Source of the DNA: Acidimicrobiales bacterium
Lineage (GTDB): Bacteria > Actinomycetota > Acidimicrobiia > Acidimicrobiales > Aldehydirespiratoraceae
Assembly: GCA_963422655.1 (NCBI GenBank)
Contig: OY730440.1
Location: 2,041,442 to 2,105,441 of the forward strand
Direction of reading: 5' to 3'
Length of the DNA: 64,000 bases
Every line of letters begins with the position of its first letter. Position 1 is the stretch's first letter. Under the pieces are notes generated by a model that saw nothing but the letters and a program-made list of their open reading frames with translations, did not search any database and was not told the DNA's origin. Position numbers and translations under genes: made by a program. Below are positions 57,008 to 64,000 of the stretch, piece after piece.

Positions 57008-57681
57008 CCGAACGAGTGTTGAATTTAGCACGGTCACTGCCGCCGGTACGTTCGCAGGGCCAGCGTGGTACATGCGTGGCGTTTGTTCTCACGTGTGGAC
57101 ATGAACGGGCGCTTTACCAGGGACCGAACGGCGAGCCTCTCAGCGAACAAGCACTGCATTGGGCCACGAAACAAATCGACCAACAGCCAGGTGACGCAAC
57201 AACTCTCTCTTGCGGAGCCCAGGCCTTGGCTTCGTCTGGACAACCACTCTCGTCGGTTTGGCCCTACGAGCCCAGCATTGATCCGGGACCTCCTCCTCCA
57301 GACTGTTTCGACACCGTCTGGTCCGCGGAAGCTGAGCCTGTCGGCGAGACTGGAGTGGCAGCACTTCGCGATATGTTGAGCAACTCACTTATCGTCTGCA
57401 CCGGGATCCCACTTTGGCCGGAGTTCACGGCAGCGACAGGTACTGCTTCAGCGATCATCCCCGTCACTCCTTTCGCTCAGACACAGAAGCCATCTCATGC
57501 GATAGCGCTTGTGGGTCACGATCCGATGCGAGGGGCCGTACTGGTTCGCAATTCGTGGGGTGAGAGTTGGGGCACTAACGGCTATTGTTGGGTAGAGGAC
57601 CAGCTCGTTGCCTGCTGCACATTGATGTGGGCGGTGATACAGGTCGTTCAAAGCCATGAGAAGCGATATGGATCTGAGTGA
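57004..57681 (+). CDS. Papain-family (C1) cysteine peptidase, no signal peptide
   Basis: VRSQGQRGTCVAFV (Gln/Cys), PSHAIALVGHD (His), VLVRNSWGESWGTNGYCWV (Asn/Trp). The GTG start overlaps the upstream stop (GTGA). Confidence 0.8.
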   Translation: MTERVLNLARSLPPVRSQGQRGTCVAFVLTCGHERALYQGPNGEPLSEQALHWATKQIDQQPGDATTLSCGAQALASSGQPLSSVWPYEPSIDPGPPPPDCFDTVWSAEAEPVGETGVAALRDMLSNSLIVCTGIPLWPEFTAATGTASAIIPVTPFAQTQKPSHAIALVGHDPMRGAVLVRNSWGESWGTNGYCWVEDQLVACCTLMWAVIQVVQSHEKRYGSE

Positions 57682-58618
57682 ATATCAACTGAAAGCGCAA
57701 GCCACCGACCAGCGGCTCCCCATGCCTGATGGTAATGAAGAGCCTCTTGATGACGACCACATTGTAGTTCCGTTGCTCGGACTGGTGGGTGAGGTGGGTG
57801 CGCTGCATACCGAGTACAAGAAGCTGCTGCGTGACGGAAGTGCCTACAGCGGCTTCGAACGCCACCTCGACGAAGAACTCGGTGATATCTTGTGGTATGT
57901 CGCTAACCTGGCATCAAAGTTCGGCCGCGATCTAAATGCCATCGCTAAAGAGAATCTTGCCAAAGTTCGCGATCGATTCCCCTCTGAAGATGCAGTTGAT
58001 AACTTTCAGTTTCCTGATCAAGACTTTCCACGCGAGCAGCAACTTCCACGTGAATTTGAGGTGTTCTTTCACACCGAAAGGCCATCAATTGATGGGCAGC
58101 CTCCGAAGGTTCAGTGTTACTGGAACGATGCCAAGTTCGGGAACGAGCTCGACGATAACGCCGTTGATGATAACGGGTACCGTTATCATGACGCATTCCA
58201 TCTCGCCTACGTTGTCTATCTCGGATGGTCACCAGTACTGCGGAAGTGGTTCGCCAGAAAACGCGACGAAACAACTCACCGTATTAGAGATGGTGGCCGG
58301 GCCAAGGTATACGAAGAAGCCATCGCAGTGCTTGTCTACAGCCACGCGTCCGAAGTGGGGTGGTTTGCTAAACCAAACCAGGAAGTTGACTTCTCCGTCC
58401 TGAAACTCATAAAGCAACTGACAGATGGTCTCGAGGAACTCAGGAATGTGACGTTGCACCGTTGGGCGGAGGCGATCAAAGCCGGATTTGCAGTCTGGAA
58501 TCAGCTCCGTGCGAATACCGGTGGTGTAGTGGTTGGAGATGCCACAGTGCCGAAGCTTGAGTATCGGCCATTGCCGTCTGACTGGCATCCGCCCTTGAAT
58601 GCCCATTTCGAGCCGTAG
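57656..58618 (+). CDS. MazG-like all-alpha NTP pyrophosphohydrolase with a 200-aa C-terminal extension of unknown function
   Basis: LLGLVGEVGALHTEYKKLLRDG ... DEELGDILWYVANLASKFGRDLNAIAKENLAKVRDRF (EExxE/D metal motifs). Overlaps the peptidase gene. An alternative start is ATG 57668. Confidence 0.65.
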   Translation: MRSDMDLSEYQLKAQATDQRLPMPDGNEEPLDDDHIVVPLLGLVGEVGALHTEYKKLLRDGSAYSGFERHLDEELGDILWYVANLASKFGRDLNAIAKENLAKVRDRFPSEDAVDNFQFPDQDFPREQQLPREFEVFFHTERPSIDGQPPKVQCYWNDAKFGNELDDNAVDDNGYRYHDAFHLAYVVYLGWSPVLRKWFARKRDETTHRIRDGGRAKVYEEAIAVLVYSHASEVGWFAKPNQEVDFSVLKLIKQLTDGLEELRNVTLHRWAEAIKAGFAVWNQLRANTGGVVVGDATVPKLEYRPLPSDWHPPLNAHFEP

Positions 58619-59690
58619 AGGGCAGAGGATCGACGGTCCACAACCTGAGGGTATCCGACTGACACACCGTGGGTTCGTTCGCAGTCATTGGTAGATTCCA
58701 TTTGGGTGGGTAGCCCAACACGAGAGGCTCAGACTTTGGTACGAAGGATTGCTTGATACGGCGTGGACCGCCAGTGTCAATTTCGGGATGTGCAACTCGC
58801 GCGTATTTGTCCACCTCACAGAACAGGTTCTGGATATCGATCAGGTGCAGTTGCCGGCCCCACAGGTCCTTGAAGTTTTTATCAGCTAGATACGGGGATG
58901 CCTCGTCTGCCATCGCAGCGATGAGATCGTGGGGATCAAGGCTACCGGTATCAGTGAAGCATTTCTGGATACCGCGTAGCGCACCTGGGCCAGCAACGAC
59001 GAAGTCCATTTCGTCGAAATCGAAGTGGGGGCTGTAGTTGAGATCGATAGCATATTGAAACGCCAGAAACGGACCGAAGGATGGAATGCAGGTCAGTTGC
59101 TCGTAGAGATCTTTGAGGGTCCTGGCCTGCGTTAGTTGCCGTAGAGTGCCTTCTCGTACGAGATGTGCGAGAAGCGCAAGATGGTTCCGGTGCTTTCGGT
59201 TCTCGCCCATGGTCGGCGAAGGCATGATGTATGCGGCTGAGTAAATACGATTGCCAGCCTTGAGGCGCCGGTCGAGGGCTCTGCTGTACCATCCTGGATC
59301 AAAAGTTGCGAGAGTCGGCTGGCCGACCGTTTCAACCAGGTAGTTCCAAGTTTCGATACGGTTGAATATCTTGAACAACAGAACTCGAAAGACCGTGTCG
59401 TCAGCGTCACGCTCATCGTCGTAGATGACGTGTTGCAGGAGGTATTGACTCACTCGATCAGAAGCACGGTACGCGTTCGTAAACCGATAGTTCGCAAGTA
59501 CGGGGTCGTTGGTCCATGGCCTTGGAAGGCCAGACACACGCCGGTTGAACATTGCTTGGCGTTCGGCAGCCAGATACCAGTAGCTCCAGAACACCTCGGT
59601 TACGGCCACCTGACGGTCCCGCAGACGGATCCGTGGAGGACGGTCCGATTGGCTCAGACGAGGCATGGCACCGGGATGATCTTGGCACAA
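58476..59690 (-). CDS. Protein resembling the phage thymidine-hypermodification family (5-hmdU DNA kinase helical / aGPT-pyrophosphorylase-like, often annotated as nucleotide kinase domain-containing protein)
   Basis: N-terminal pattern FWSYWYLAAERQAMFNRRVSGLPRPWTNDPVLANYRFTNAYRASDRVSQYLL, recalled from that family. Not verified by search. The 3' 143 nt overlap the convergent MazG-like gene. Confidence 0.45.
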   Translation of the reverse strand: MCQDHPGAMPRLSQSDRPPRIRLRDRQVAVTEVFWSYWYLAAERQAMFNRRVSGLPRPWTNDPVLANYRFTNAYRASDRVSQYLLQHVIYDDERDADDTVFRVLLFKIFNRIETWNYLVETVGQPTLATFDPGWYSRALDRRLKAGNRIYSAAYIMPSPTMGENRKHRNHLALLAHLVREGTLRQLTQARTLKDLYEQLTCIPSFGPFLAFQYAIDLNYSPHFDFDEMDFVVAGPGALRGIQKCFTDTGSLDPHDLIAAMADEASPYLADKNFKDLWGRQLHLIDIQNLFCEVDKYARVAHPEIDTGGPRRIKQSFVPKSEPLVLGYPPKWNLPMTANEPTVCQSDTLRLWTVDPLPSTARNGHSRADASQTAMADTQASALWHLQPLHHRYSHGADSRLQIRL

Positions 59691-59785
59691 GAACAGACGC
59701 GATGCAGAACCGGGCCACTAGTTCAGCCGTAAGCGCCGGTACGGGCCGCTGCCAGGAGCCGATCAGACCAACGAGTGCCAGACTA

Positions 59786-62665
59786 ATGGCCATGGCTGAT
59801 GAGCCTTCGGACTATCTCGCTCCCGAGCAGCATGCGCGCATGAAGATCGACGCCCAACTCAAGGCGTGCGGATGGGTGGTGCAGGACTACCGGCATGGCG
59901 CTGTGAGTGCCGCGCCCGGTGTCGCCGTGCGTGAGGTGCCCACTGGGGCTGGCCCCGCCGATTACGTGCTGTTCGTGGACGCCCAGGCGGTGGGGGTGAT
60001 CGAAGCCAAGAAGCGGGGCACGACGCTCACCGGCGTGGAACGCCAGACGCACAGATACCGGGCAGCCTTTCCCGATGAGCTGCCAGCTTTTTTCGTTGAG
60101 GGGGCTCTGCCCTTCGGCTACGAATCAACCGGCACCGAGACCCGGTTCACCTGCGGGCTCGATCCGGAGCCGACGTCACGGCGAGTGTTCACGTTTCATC
60201 GACCCAAAACGCTCGCCCGCTGGCACGATGATCACATCCGTCTAGGCGGCCACGCCACCTCCAGGACCAGCTTCCGGGCCGGGCTGGGTCTTCTGCCCGA
60301 TCTGGATCCGGCTGGGCTCTGGGCAGCCCAAGCCGAAGCCATCCGGAATCTCGAGCGGTCGTTGAAAGCGAACCGGGCCCGGGCTTTGATCCAAATGGCG
60401 ACCGGCTCGGGTAAGACTTTCACAGTCGCCAACATCTCGTACCGGCTCCTTCGCCACGCCGGTGCACGCAGGATTCTGTTTCTGGTGGACCGGGCCAACC
60501 TGGCCACACAAACGATCCGTGAGCTCGAGGGTTTCGCCACCCCCGACGACGGCCGTAAGTTCACCGAGCTCTACAACGCCCGCCAGCTCACCTCCTCGGG
60601 GCTCGACATGGTTGACGAGGCAGCCACCAAAGTGCATGTGGCGACCATTCAGCGGATCTACTCGATCTTGCGGGGCGAGGACCTTAGCGACGATCTCGAC
60701 GAACGGTCGGCTTTCGACATGGCCCCCGAACGCCCCGTGGAAGTGCTCTACAACCCGGCTGTACCCATCGAGAGCTACGACGTGATCATCATCGACGAAT
60801 GCCACCGGTCGATCTATGGGGTATGGCGCCAGGTGCTGGAGTATTTTGACGCCTTCCTCATCGGGCTTACGGCCACGCCGGGCAAGCAGACATTCGGTTT
60901 CTTCGACCAGAACCTGGTGATGGAGTACGGCCACGAACAGGCCGTTGCCGACCGGGTGAACGTCGACTTCGATGTGTTTCGCATTCGTACCGAGATCTCC
61001 GAGTCCGGCAGCACCGTTGATGCCGGGTTGGTCACCGAGTTCCGTGACCGGGAGACCCGCAAGCAGCGCTTCGAACGTATCGACACCGACTTGGACTACG
61101 AGGCCTCCGACCTCGACCGTAAGGTGGTGGCTCCCGATCAGATCCGCACAATCGTTAGCGCTTTGCGCGACTCGCTGCCGAAAATGTTTCCGGATCGCAT
61201 CGTGGGAGACAACGGGCGGCTCGAACACATACCCAAGACGTTGATATACGCCAAAGACGACAGCCATGCCGACGACATCGTGCAGATCGTCCGTGAAGAG
61301 TTCGGCCTGTCGAGTTTGGGTGCGGTGAAGATCACCTACAAGACGTTCGAGTCCGGTCACAAACCCGAGGAGCTGCTTCAACAGTTCCGAACCGGCTACG
61401 AGACTCGGGTCGCGGTCACGGTTGACATGATCGCCACCGGCACCGATGTGCGGCCCATTGAGTGTGTCGTGTTCATGCGGATGGTGCGCAGCCGCACCTT
61501 CTTTGAGCAGATGAAGGGTCGTGGAGTGCGAGTGATGAGCTCCGAAGACCTGCGCGGTGTCACTCCTGACGCCACCGCCAAAGACCATTTCGTGATCGTT
61601 GATGCGGTCGGCGTTACCGAAACCATGCTGGCCGACACAGTTCCGCTGGAGCGCTGCCATAGCGTCGGGTTCGACCGGCTTCTCAACCAGATCGGCCTCG
61701 GCAGTACCGACGAAGATGTCGTCTCATCGGTGGCGTCCCGGCTGGCCCGACTCGACAAGCGCATCACCGGACCGGACCGAGCCGAGCTCGAAGAAGTGGC
61801 AGGCATCAGTCTCGGTGAGCTGTCTCACCAACTCGTCGATGCCCTTGACCCTGATCGGCATCACGCCGAGGCTATAAAGGTCTGTGGCACTGATATGCCT
61901 ACTGGCGCCGAAGTCGCGGCGGCCCGTAAACGACTAGTGAAAGCAGCGCTGGCGCCCATCGCGGGTAACTCTGCGTGTCGTGAGAAGCTGGTCGAGATTC
62001 GTCGTAGCTACGAACAGGTCATCGACGCCGCCTCCAAGGACCGGGTCATATCAGGCCGATTCTCCAGGGACGCCACCGACCGGGCCCGCGGCATCGTCGA
62101 TTCCTTCCGCCAGTACATAGAAGACAACAAGGACGAGATCACCGCTCTTCAGGTTCTCTACAGCCAGCCCTATAGCGGTGGGCTCAGCTTCGCTGACATC
62201 CGGGAGTTGGCGAACTCGATCAAACGGTCACCTCGCAACTGGACCACCGAGGACCTCTGGGAGGCTTACGAGACTCTTGACGCCAGCAAGGTTCGGGGGT
62301 CGGGTCATCGAGTCAACACCGATCTCGTCAGCCTGGTTCGTTACGCGTTGGGCAGCGCTGATGAGCTTGTCTCTTACCCTGATCTCGTAGACGAGCGCTT
62401 TGACGCGTGGCTGTTGCAGCAGACCCAATCCCCCCCCCCCCCCCCCCCCCCCGGAAGCGAAAGACTCGGGGGAGGGCTTTCCAGTGAACAGATTGACTAT
62501 CTCCGCCTAGTCAAGGATCACATCGCCGCAAGTCTCGGGATCGAGGCTCGCGATTTACAGAACCTGCCGTTCAGTCAGCACGGTGGACTAGGCCGAGCCC
62601 GCCAGCTCTTCGGCCGCGGTCTTGAACAATTACTAGACGAGCTCACTCAGGCGCTGGCCGCATGA
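59786..62665 (+). CDS. hsdR: Type I restriction enzyme R subunit
   Basis: N-terminal PD-(D/E)xK nuclease ADYVLF...VIEAKK. Helicase motifs IQMATGSGKT, IIIDECHRS, LTATP, TVDMIATGTDV. C-terminal EcoEI_R_C-like domain after the poly-Pro. Start taken at ATG 59786; the ORF is open from 59552. Confidence 0.9.
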   Translation: MAMADEPSDYLAPEQHARMKIDAQLKACGWVVQDYRHGAVSAAPGVAVREVPTGAGPADYVLFVDAQAVGVIEAKKRGTTLTGVERQTHRYRAAFPDELPAFFVEGALPFGYESTGTETRFTCGLDPEPTSRRVFTFHRPKTLARWHDDHIRLGGHATSRTSFRAGLGLLPDLDPAGLWAAQAEAIRNLERSLKANRARALIQMATGSGKTFTVANISYRLLRHAGARRILFLVDRANLATQTIRELEGFATPDDGRKFTELYNARQLTSSGLDMVDEAATKVHVATIQRIYSILRGEDLSDDLDERSAFDMAPERPVEVLYNPAVPIESYDVIIIDECHRSIYGVWRQVLEYFDAFLIGLTATPGKQTFGFFDQNLVMEYGHEQAVADRVNVDFDVFRIRTEISESGSTVDAGLVTEFRDRETRKQRFERIDTDLDYEASDLDRKVVAPDQIRTIVSALRDSLPKMFPDRIVGDNGRLEHIPKTLIYAKDDSHADDIVQIVREEFGLSSLGAVKITYKTFESGHKPEELLQQFRTGYETRVAVTVDMIATGTDVRPIECVVFMRMVRSRTFFEQMKGRGVRVMSSEDLRGVTPDATAKDHFVIVDAVGVTETMLADTVPLERCHSVGFDRLLNQIGLGSTDEDVVSSVASRLARLDKRITGPDRAELEEVAGISLGELSHQLVDALDPDRHHAEAIKVCGTDMPTGAEVAAARKRLVKAALAPIAGNSACREKLVEIRRSYEQVIDAASKDRVISGRFSRDATDRARGIVDSFRQYIEDNKDEITALQVLYSQPYSGGLSFADIRELANSIKRSPRNWTTEDLWEAYETLDASKVRGSGHRVNTDLVSLVRYALGSADELVSYPDLVDERFDAWLLQQTQSPPPPPPPGSERLGGGLSSEQIDYLRLVKDHIAASLGIEARDLQNLPFSQHGGLGRARQLFGRGLEQLLDELTQALAA
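62430..62452 (+). repeat. 23-nt poly-C homopolymer inside hsdR (encodes S-P7)
   Basis: Counted directly: c at 62430 plus cccccccccc cccccccccc cc. Confidence 0.95.
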
Positions 62666-63972
62666 GTGAAGATCTTCCACCAGGCTGGGCGTGGGCCGAA
62701 TTGGGTTGCATAGCCGACACGCAGCTTGGAAAGACATTGAATCGTTCCAAACAGACGGGTGAAGCGACTACCCCTTACCTACGGAACCTCAACATCAGAT
62801 GGGGGAGCTTTGATCTCAATGCTGTCAACAGGATGGATATCTTTCCTGAGGAATCTGAACAATTTACAGTTCAAAATGGTGATCTGCTTCTGACTGAGGG
62901 TGGTGAACCAGGCCGGTGTGCAGTGTGGCGGCTCGAGGAGAGATTCGGGTTTCAGAATGCCCTACACCGAATTCGTCCCGCTGGTCGTATTCGCCCTGAA
63001 TTTCTCCAATGTCAGTTTGAATGGCTGACCAAGACAGGACAATTAGCTCACCTCTTTTCAGGTGTCACGATCAAGCATTTTTCTCAGTCAAAACTGCGAT
63101 CAGTCAAGATCCGACTTCCGCCGCTTGCGGAGCAGGGGCGGATTGTTCCTGCTATCGAAGAGCACTTCTCACGGCTCGACGCCGCAGAAACGGCTGCTCA
63201 GACCGCTCTCACCAAGCTGGACATGCTCCGGCGAGCGGTGCTAGCCGCCGCCTTCTCCGGCCGCCACACCGACGACTGGAAGTGGGCCGAATTGGGTGAG
63301 ATTTGCACGGAGATTAAGGGACAGATCTCCCCCAAATCCGGATCCATCTACGATCTATATAGCGTCCCAGCATTCCCAACCGGGCTTCCCGAACGAATTG
63401 ATGGTGACGAGATCAAGAGTGGAAAGCGTGAAATCCAGCCGGGCAATCTTCTGATCTGTAAGATTAACCCTCGCATCAACCGTGTTTGGATAGTCGGTGA
63501 CTCCGAAGGACTACCTCAGATTGCTTCAACGGAGTATCTAGTTATCCGCCCGCATGAACCCAATGTAGGTGCCTTCATTCGATGGTATCTATCGTCTCCA
63601 TCGTTCAGGAAATGGATCGTACTATCGGTGGAGGGTGTCACTGGCTCTCACACACGAGCCAAATCTAGGCTCATCCTTAAGCAGCCAATTCCCCTTCCGC
63701 CGCTTGCGGAGCAACAGCGGATTGTTGCTGCTATCGAAGAGCACTTTTCCCGAATAGATGCCGCCGAGTCAGCCTTGCAGAAGCTGCTCGAAAAGGTAGC
63801 GGATTTGCGTCGGTCGATACTCGCTGCTGCGTTCTCGGGCCAGCTCGTTCCCCAAGATCCCGACGACGAGCCAGCGTCGGTCCTACTCGAACGAATCGTT
63901 GCTGAGCGGCCGAAGCGTCGCACCCGGCGAGCCGCACCCGCCGCCTCATTCGGCGCAAGGAAGCAGTCATGA
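62662..63972 (+). CDS. hsdS: Type I restriction-modification specificity subunit
   Basis: Two target-recognition domains separated by, and followed by, conserved helices LPPLAEQGRIVPAIEEHFSRLDAAE... and LPPLAEQQRIVAAIEEHFSRIDAAE.... ATGA overlap with hsdR. Confidence 0.9.
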   Translation: MSEDLPPGWAWAELGCIADTQLGKTLNRSKQTGEATTPYLRNLNIRWGSFDLNAVNRMDIFPEESEQFTVQNGDLLLTEGGEPGRCAVWRLEERFGFQNALHRIRPAGRIRPEFLQCQFEWLTKTGQLAHLFSGVTIKHFSQSKLRSVKIRLPPLAEQGRIVPAIEEHFSRLDAAETAAQTALTKLDMLRRAVLAAAFSGRHTDDWKWAELGEICTEIKGQISPKSGSIYDLYSVPAFPTGLPERIDGDEIKSGKREIQPGNLLICKINPRINRVWIVGDSEGLPQIASTEYLVIRPHEPNVGAFIRWYLSSPSFRKWIVLSVEGVTGSHTRAKSRLILKQPIPLPPLAEQQRIVAAIEEHFSRIDAAESALQKLLEKVADLRRSILAAAFSGQLVPQDPDDEPASVLLERIVAERPKRRTRRAAPAASFGARKQS

Positions 63973-64000
63973 GTTCAGATCCGAAGGCTCTCGTCCAGAA
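63969..64000 (+). CDS. Start of a further gene (possibly hsdM by operon logic), truncated by the window end
   Basis: The ATG overlaps the hsdS stop (ATGA). Only MSSDPKALVQ is visible, so the function cannot be read. Confidence 0.3.
   Translation, partial: MSSDPKALVQ

Follow-up and report, generated by a model that had tools for sequence, protein, structure and literature searches.

The type I restriction-modification locus

The DNA analysed here (the window) is a 64,000-nucleotide stretch of an Acidimicrobiales genome, a single contig of 3,008,857 bases with 64.3% GC that is rated 96% complete (designated G000). It holds the genes of a type I restriction-modification system, and the 3′ part of the restriction gene, hsdR, contains an uninterrupted run of 23 C residues (C23), which is the subject of this study. 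hsdR (59786-62665, plus strand) was recognized by Pfam, NCBIfam and Foldseek and encodes a protein of 959 amino acids (aa) whose exact sequence is on public record; the public start at 59786 (MAMADEPSDY...) is located inside a longer open reading frame (ORF), 59552-62665. HSDR_N (27.5 bits, cut-off 25.1), ResIII (124.7 bits), Helicase_C (27.4 bits) and EcoEI_R_C (124.1 bits) were assigned to the product by Pfam, and the motor region also matched SWI2_SNF2/DEAD. When an AlphaFold model of the protein was searched with Foldseek, the top matches were HsdR structures, 3H1T (E 4e-13) and EcoR124I HsdR (7BST_B). Scores for the NCBIfam equivalogs PRK11448 and restrict_EcoAI (329 and 155, with cut-offs of 729 and 550, respectively) were far too low, which points to a distant subfamily of the same architecture and not to an EcoEI or EcoAI orthologue. 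Judged by its sequence, the gene is a type I HsdR subunit with an EcoAI/EcoEI-like architecture, in which predicted nuclease, superfamily 2 (SF2) helicase motor and EcoEI_R_C are combined in one polypeptide.

The operon has the order hsdR-hsdS-hsdM, and consecutive genes are joined by ATGA overlaps. hsdS (62662-63972, plus strand; 436 aa, two Methylase_S target-recognition domains) begins with an ATG that overlaps the hsdR stop codon, and no obvious Shine-Dalgarno sequence was detected at its start. hsdM (483 aa; HsdM_N and N6_Mtase, the latter matched at 1e-64) overlaps the end of hsdS, has AAGGAAG upstream, and occupies 63969-64000 (plus strand) before it continues to genome position 2106861. 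No long run was present in hsdS within the window, and the genome-wide list contained no run of at least 9 nucleotides (nt) in hsdM (2105410-2106861). A phasevarion was considered and rejected, since the tract is in hsdR and neither the methylase nor the specificity gene carries a long run. GC content of the restriction-modification locus was 0.55-0.62, compared to 0.66-0.68 in upstream DNA.

The C23 tract and its reading frames

C23 is located at 62430-62452 on the plus strand, with T before and GGAAGC after it. Together with the preceding T, it is read in ORF 59552-62665 as TCC followed by seven CCC codons (Ser882 and Pro883 to Pro889), exactly as a first-pass annotation of this DNA had described it. 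All seven proline codons in the tract are CCC, compared to 18 of 35 elsewhere in hsdR, and proline codons are found in every reading frame of the run. Genome-wide, C-runs numbered 540, 84, 8 and 1 at lengths 6, 7, 8 and 9, respectively; a run of 23 is far beyond chance expectation. The slippage-prone length proposed by the first-pass annotation agrees with the usual definition of a hypermutable repeat, which is at least 9 mononucleotide repeats (PMC7383803).

The consequences of length changes were predicted in silico. After gain of one base (C24) or loss of two (C21), the first stop codon is TGA at 62485-62487 (plus strand) and the product has 900 or 899 aa, respectively; after loss of one base (C22) or gain of two (C25), it is TAG at 62508-62510 (plus strand), with products of 907 or 908 aa. 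A product of the 959-aa type is obtained from hsdR only when the tract length is 23 ± 3n. As there is no long alternative frame past the tract, out-of-frame HsdR would simply lack the conserved last 60-70 residues, and the earlier claim that a single-base change truncates the C-terminus was borne out by these predicted products. The same annotation assumed that modification stays intact after such a frameshift. This is uncertain, because an early hsdR stop could lower HsdS, given the overlapping hsdS start and its lack of an obvious ribosome-binding sequence; polar loss of HsdS translational coupling is possible.

An interrupted G-run, GGGGGAGGG (G5AG3; 62468-62476, plus strand), was found 15 nt downstream of C23. 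A hairpin formed by the C-run and the G-run was rejected as a functional structure, with z values of -0.26 and -0.58 relative to shuffled sequence and no extra stability. Searches of public metagenome contigs yielded no match to an exact 28-mer of the right flank or to a degenerate left-flank pattern.

Position of the tract in HsdR

EcoEI_R_C was matched by Pfam as a single stretch that covers residues 848-1035 of the long ORF and positions 3-162 of the 163-position profile, and the tract therefore lies inside this domain and interrupts it. The first-pass annotation had placed the tract at the junction to the C-terminal domain, a placement that did not hold: the ~70 aa after the tract are not the whole domain but its final ~40%.

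We aligned 35 HsdR homologues from several phyla and compared the loop between a conserved Trp and a conserved Gln that surrounds the site. In 32 of these proteins the loop has 16 residues and no prolines (typically QQxxxGRxFTxxQ). In HsdR of the window it has 28 residues, the 12 extra ones being PPPPPPPGSERL. The corresponding 36-nt insertion (62432-62467, plus strand) was delineated by alignment to orthologues and is predicted to form a disordered loop between helices: the AlphaFold2 (AF2) confidence measure, pLDDT, is below 50 at residues 884-895, between a helix at 864-881 and helices at 900-958. The conserved C-terminal helices that follow (residues 898-959; 62477-62662, plus strand) were defined by homologue motifs and are modelled with pLDDT 81-90; the post-tract sequence EQxxYLxxIKDHIAASL...PF...GGLGRA..LFG...LL.EL..ALAA is kept in all aligned homologues. 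A conserved poly-Pro linker encoded by mixed codons had been named beforehand as the finding among orthologues that speaks against phase variation; no such linker was seen in the alignment, and this refutation fails. None of the orthologues with ~70-77% identity had a run of any kind.

Two distant hsdR homologues from Nitrospira and Desulfovibrionales (L063:4001-7483 and L070:70-3015) contain stop codons or additional sequence in this inter-helix loop or close to it, which suggests that insertions may be tolerated there. No solved structure for EcoEI_R_C was found by sequence, and Foldseek searches with the whole model returned the HsdR motor only. In EcoR124I, the C-terminal region of HsdR has been implicated in binding the HsdS-HsdM complex (PMC2878639), and by analogy with that protein truncation at the tract would abolish restriction.

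Comparison with the closest relative

A single close relative was available, contig OY730477.1 (L001; genome G041), and the comparison rests on this one genome. Nucleotide identity to the window was 94-95% across hsdR and hsdM. At the tract site the relative reads ACC-CCCC-GGAGGCAAAC-G11-CTTTCCAGTGAACAG, followed by a 21-nt duplication. In other words, C23 and G5AG3 in the window are replaced at the same site by C6-N10-G11, and G11 is an expanded counterpart of GGGGGAGGG. That the site differs to this extent while its flanks are so similar indicates that it is far more changeable than the flanks. The first-pass annotation had regarded an invariant tract in related strains as evidence against switching, and the relative differs instead.

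As recorded, hsdR of the relative is one base out of frame and encodes 888 aa, ending just past the G-run. With G10 or G13 it would encode 954 or 955 aa in silico, with the conserved C-terminus intact, and the adjacent hsdS (444 aa) and hsdM (483 aa) are intact. From its sequence, this hsdR looks switched off, not decayed, and one slip away from an open frame. Clustering of proteins at 90% identity grouped only two members, HsdR of the window and the truncated HsdR of the relative (P0003). Between the two genes, 58 synonymous and 45 non-synonymous codon differences were counted in the 876 codons before the tract, and 3 synonymous and 2 non-synonymous differences in the 58 codons after it, these five being too few for an inference on selection.

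Upstream of hsdR, the neighbourhood in the relative is rearranged compared to the window. This neighbourhood includes a partial duplicate of an internal stretch of hsdR (L001:1005-1632), which is 93% identical to positions 2101296-2101923 of G000.

G/C runs across the genome and the family

We detected 46 G/C homopolymers of 9-36 nt in G000, 45 of which were 10-36 nt long, and no A/T run longer than 8 nt; C23 is the only one of the 46 inside the window. Open frames holding the runs were classified by Pfam, PADLOC and NCBIfam searches. Approximately one third of the runs were in defence genes and another third in genes for secreted or giant surface proteins. The open frame at the G10 run near position 2935837 had no NCBIfam match, and a reading of it as an hsdR relic was not confirmed. 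A shared inserted element beside the runs was rejected, as no motif was common to the flanks of all 46. Of 24 genomes belonging to this family, 14 (fragmented assemblies included) had runs of at least 14 nt; in other families of the order, such runs were present in only 2 of the 16 genomes compared.

The set of tract-bearing defence genes was diverse. Two Type ISP restriction-modification enzymes accounted for five runs, two in one and three in the other, of which four were in the 3′ part of the gene, and HmaC (DUF499) had two. Of two tract-bearing HmaB (DUF1156) methylases, one was split at C26, and an AbiJ-like gene was split at C18. An SspC/BrxC-like ATPase had C17 ~35 codons into its open frame, a 6A-MBL-like gene carried a G/C run, and a Type IIG enzyme had C13 after the TGA closing one C-terminal cassette, ahead of a second cassette. 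The surface and secreted group included a sulfatase, a giant LRR/FN3/cadherin/PKD open frame of 22,359 codons (G000:C1:826607-893683, minus strand) that has two runs, C10 and C18, at the 5′ end, and another giant surface-protein gene split at C36. Furthermore, eight sialidase/BNR/LamG paralogues (G000:C1: 957515, 1847872, 2027293, 2577118, 2580870, 2584981, 2736390 and 2956168) had a G-run, or in some cases two, right after the signal peptide, and three of them were in frame and five out of frame. Such a mixture of in-frame and out-of-frame paralogues is the look of contingency gene families.

Comparison of runs between G000 and G041 was carried out systematically for 16 tract loci, only ~5 of which had counterparts because the defence islands of the two genomes differ. 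Differences were seen at other orthologous runs too. The SspC-like gene had C17 in G000 and C11 in G041, and the runs in the Type ISP and Type IIG genes differed as well. In HmaC, G18 (G000:C1:38041-38058) was found opposite C15 (G041:C1:2100840-2100854, L125) on the same strand and a few codons apart, which at the protein level means poly-Pro versus poly-Gly between the two genomes.

The C-terminal region of the Type IIG enzyme consists of tandem ~765-nt cassettes (G000:C1:65477-67466; G041:C1:2219186-2222288, L122-L128), two in G000 and three or four in G041, with junctions of the form '...WAAK TGA + C9-C13 + GCTGATGGCGAAGTCTGGCC'. A slip in such a junction run would fuse or swap C-terminal modules, which may be specificity modules. 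The C10 and C18 runs of the 22,359-codon frame are ~180 nt apart and are part of a duplicated segment. One apparently non-coding region (G000:C1:52743-52802) has the arrangement C17-GGGCGATG-C9-AAGCTAAT-G18, in which C-runs face a G-run.

Repair and proposed mechanism

G000 encodes NucS, and neither MutS_V nor a MutL domain was matched in this 96% complete single-contig genome. It has been reported that NucS cannot repair insertions and deletions (indels) in vivo (PMC7015689). With MutS and MutL undetected, slips in homopolymers would thus go uncorrected, an expectation drawn from a related member of the phylum.

We propose the following mechanism. Slipped-strand mispairing during replication would add bases to C23 or remove them, and the slips would persist since NucS leaves indels in place. 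At lengths of 23 ± 3n, full-length HsdR would be made, with the Pro-rich loop tolerated inside EcoEI_R_C. At all other lengths, translation would end 11-19 codons on and the last 60-70 conserved residues would be lost. Judging from the C-termini of other HsdR proteins, cooperation of HsdR with the M2S methylase probably depends on this segment. Cells that restrict and cells that do not would then coexist in one clonal population.

Assessment of the tract as a probable contingency locus

We consider C23 to be a real hypermutable simple-sequence repeat that makes the 3′ part of hsdR a contingency locus, and assign this reading a probability of roughly 0.6. Three properties of contingency loci were found at the site: a run of at least 9, a product altered by a change of one unit, and a repeat that differs in the relative while the flanks are conserved. 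Hypermutability of the site is well supported, and a functional restriction switch is plausible; that the tract does switch, at some rate, that truncation costs the cell restriction and that the cell benefits are what we infer from these properties. Overall, the phase variation proposed by the first-pass annotation was partly supported: tract length, truncation, orthologues, the relative and the genome-wide runs agree with it, and the placement at a domain junction does not.

Several points weigh against this reading. In a long-read metagenome assembly, the recorded length of a 23-nt run may be wrong by 1-2 nt in either direction, and the ON state is accordingly uncertain. The tract is located 92% through hsdR, whereas classic switches are usually near the 5′ end, and truncated HsdR might keep some activity. 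The allele is present in only one other genome. At the HmaC site the bases of the two runs are complementary, and plain slippage is therefore no explanation for the difference there. RNA polymerase slipping on so long a run could also blur ON and OFF states. Finally, a survey of type I systems saw no obvious regulatory benefit in switching R alone and little variation in hsdR repeats (PMC7383803). That survey doubted a function for hsdR repeats because most of them are short and invariant (PMC7383803); the tract described here is very long, unlike that of the one relative, and part of a genome-wide set.

The strongest competitor is that the tract is real and unstable but not adaptive, i.e., a by-product of a lineage-wide tendency for G/C runs to arise and expand, tolerated for the most part in dispensable genes of horizontal origin, with hsdR drifting toward a pseudogene. 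We regard it as a serious alternative, albeit an unlikely one. Out-of-frame hsdR with its extra duplication in the relative, the lower-GC island in which the locus resides, and the tract-bearing genes that are split at their runs (HmaB, the AbiJ-like gene and the giant gene with C36) are all in line with such a scar. Swapping of C- and G-runs at the same site between relatives suggests a mutational hotspot, and the rapid turnover of defence genes, which leaves most G000 tract loci without a counterpart in G041, points in the same direction. On the other hand, codon differences show no faster decay after the tract, although few were counted there; both genomes have intact hsdS and hsdM; and runs are kept at the same sites in both species, with the G041 frame reopened by one slip. 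In addition, runs in other genes occupy positions typical of switches, such as just after signal peptides or at the stop codon between Type IIG cassettes.

It is less probable still that the tract acts as an expression dimmer, in which RNA polymerase slippage and ribosome stalling on Pro7 give a low-level mixture of full-length and truncated HsdR at every DNA length. The run is far longer than the 9-bp RNA-DNA hybrid, long homopolymers cause transcriptional slippage, seven consecutive prolines are a strong EF-P-dependent stalling motif, and each frame of the run codes for proline. Slippage and stalling could also leave a genuine switch leaky. However, slippage is best documented at A/T runs, and a dimmer leaves unexplained both the DNA length differences between relatives and the mixed frames of paralogues.

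A sequencing or assembly artefact, with the run or most of its length absent from cells, is very improbable. The errors that remain in long-read consensus sequences are chiefly in long homopolymers, and the source is a single-contig metagenome-assembled genome; but an independent assembly, that of the relative, has runs at the same site, runs cluster in defence and surface gene classes and recur at equivalent positions in eight paralogues, and they are found in many assemblies of the family. Doubt is confined to the exact tract length (±1-2 nt). Least probable of all is selection on the protein for a poly-Pro linker that serves as a rigid spacer inside the C-terminal domain. This would fit a modelled in-frame insertion in a surface loop between helices but not the proline-free loop of most homologues, the absence of poly-Pro at the site in the closest relative or the exclusive use of CCC codons in the tract.

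Comparison with known phase-variable systems

Switches based on slippage are already known, and the hsdR tract described here fits a slipped-strand contingency locus of this type. In Helicobacter pylori, the hsdR gene HP0464 likewise contains a poly-C run that shifts its frame; ON and OFF states were about equal in 31 genomes, and restoration of the frame activates the system and changes the phenotype (PMC4209511). The HP0464 tract is ~9-15 nt long, compared to 23 nt here, where the run is close to the end of the gene and inside EcoEI_R_C. The hosts also differ: H. pylori is an epsilonproteobacterial pathogen, whereas the bacterium studied here is an uncultured marine member of Acidimicrobiia in which neither MutS nor MutL was found. 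Among hsdR genes in REBASE, 4.3% have repeats able to phase-vary, and poly-C tracts of Helicobacter are prominent among them (Atack et al. 2020, PMC7383803).

A second parallel is the Mycobacterium tuberculosis complex, in which reversible frameshifts in G/C homopolymers serve as adaptive switches (PMC10334774). It is an actinobacterium that relies on NucS, without repair of indels. However, mycobacterial tracts are ~7-10 nt long and are mostly in metabolic and cell-envelope genes, whereas the dozens of runs found here are 10-36 nt long, and many belong to genes for defence or for secreted proteins. In Campylobacter and Neisseria (for example cj0031 Type IIG and NgoAV hsdS), as in the present genome, restriction-modification and surface genes contain many G/C runs, and paralogues are of mixed ON/OFF state. 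Their tracts are usually 8-13 nt long and are located at the 5′ end or between target-recognition domains, and the hosts are host-adapted Gram-negative pathogens. Out of the ordinary in the present lineage are the size of the tract set, the length of its tracts and the replacement of runs at fixed sites.

A wider reading, which we offer tentatively and with considerable doubt, is that of a lineage-wide system: the family would keep dozens of exceptionally long G/C runs (10-36 nt) that independently switch much of its anti-phage arsenal together with secreted and giant surface proteins, and in the course of evolution the runs would be renewed at the same protein loops, sometimes with a G-run taking the place of a C-run. 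Among the switched defence genes would be those for type I, Type ISP and Hma systems, an SspC/BrxC-like gene, and Type IIG with its tandem C-terminal cassettes. If true, this would imply either that mutability is under strong selection or that tracts are generated by an active or biased process, for instance by template switching among adjacent C and G runs.

Phase-variable restriction is a textbook phenomenon in a few host-adapted pathogens and has hardly been described for uncultured Actinomycetota, whether environmental or symbiotic. Should the switch function, clone-mates would differ in whether they cut incoming DNA, and protection from phages would be balanced against uptake of DNA and damage to self. 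The spread of about 46 very long G/C runs over at least nine defence genes and a sialidase-like secreted family suggests bet-hedging similar in scale to that of Campylobacter or Neisseria, here in a lineage that lacks canonical mismatch repair. Calls of intact genes or pseudogenes at such runs are unreliable and should not be taken as fixed states.

Genes adjacent to the restriction locus

Directly upstream of hsdR (57656-59690) are a gene with MazG and MazG_C domains on the plus strand and a gene for a 5-hmdU DNA kinase helical-domain protein on the minus strand (E 3e-102). MazG/MazG_C and 5-hmdU DNA kinase-like genes are parts of thymidine-hypermodification pathways, and here they adjoin a type I system. 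An HTH/IrrE-like pair is also located close to the hsdR locus.

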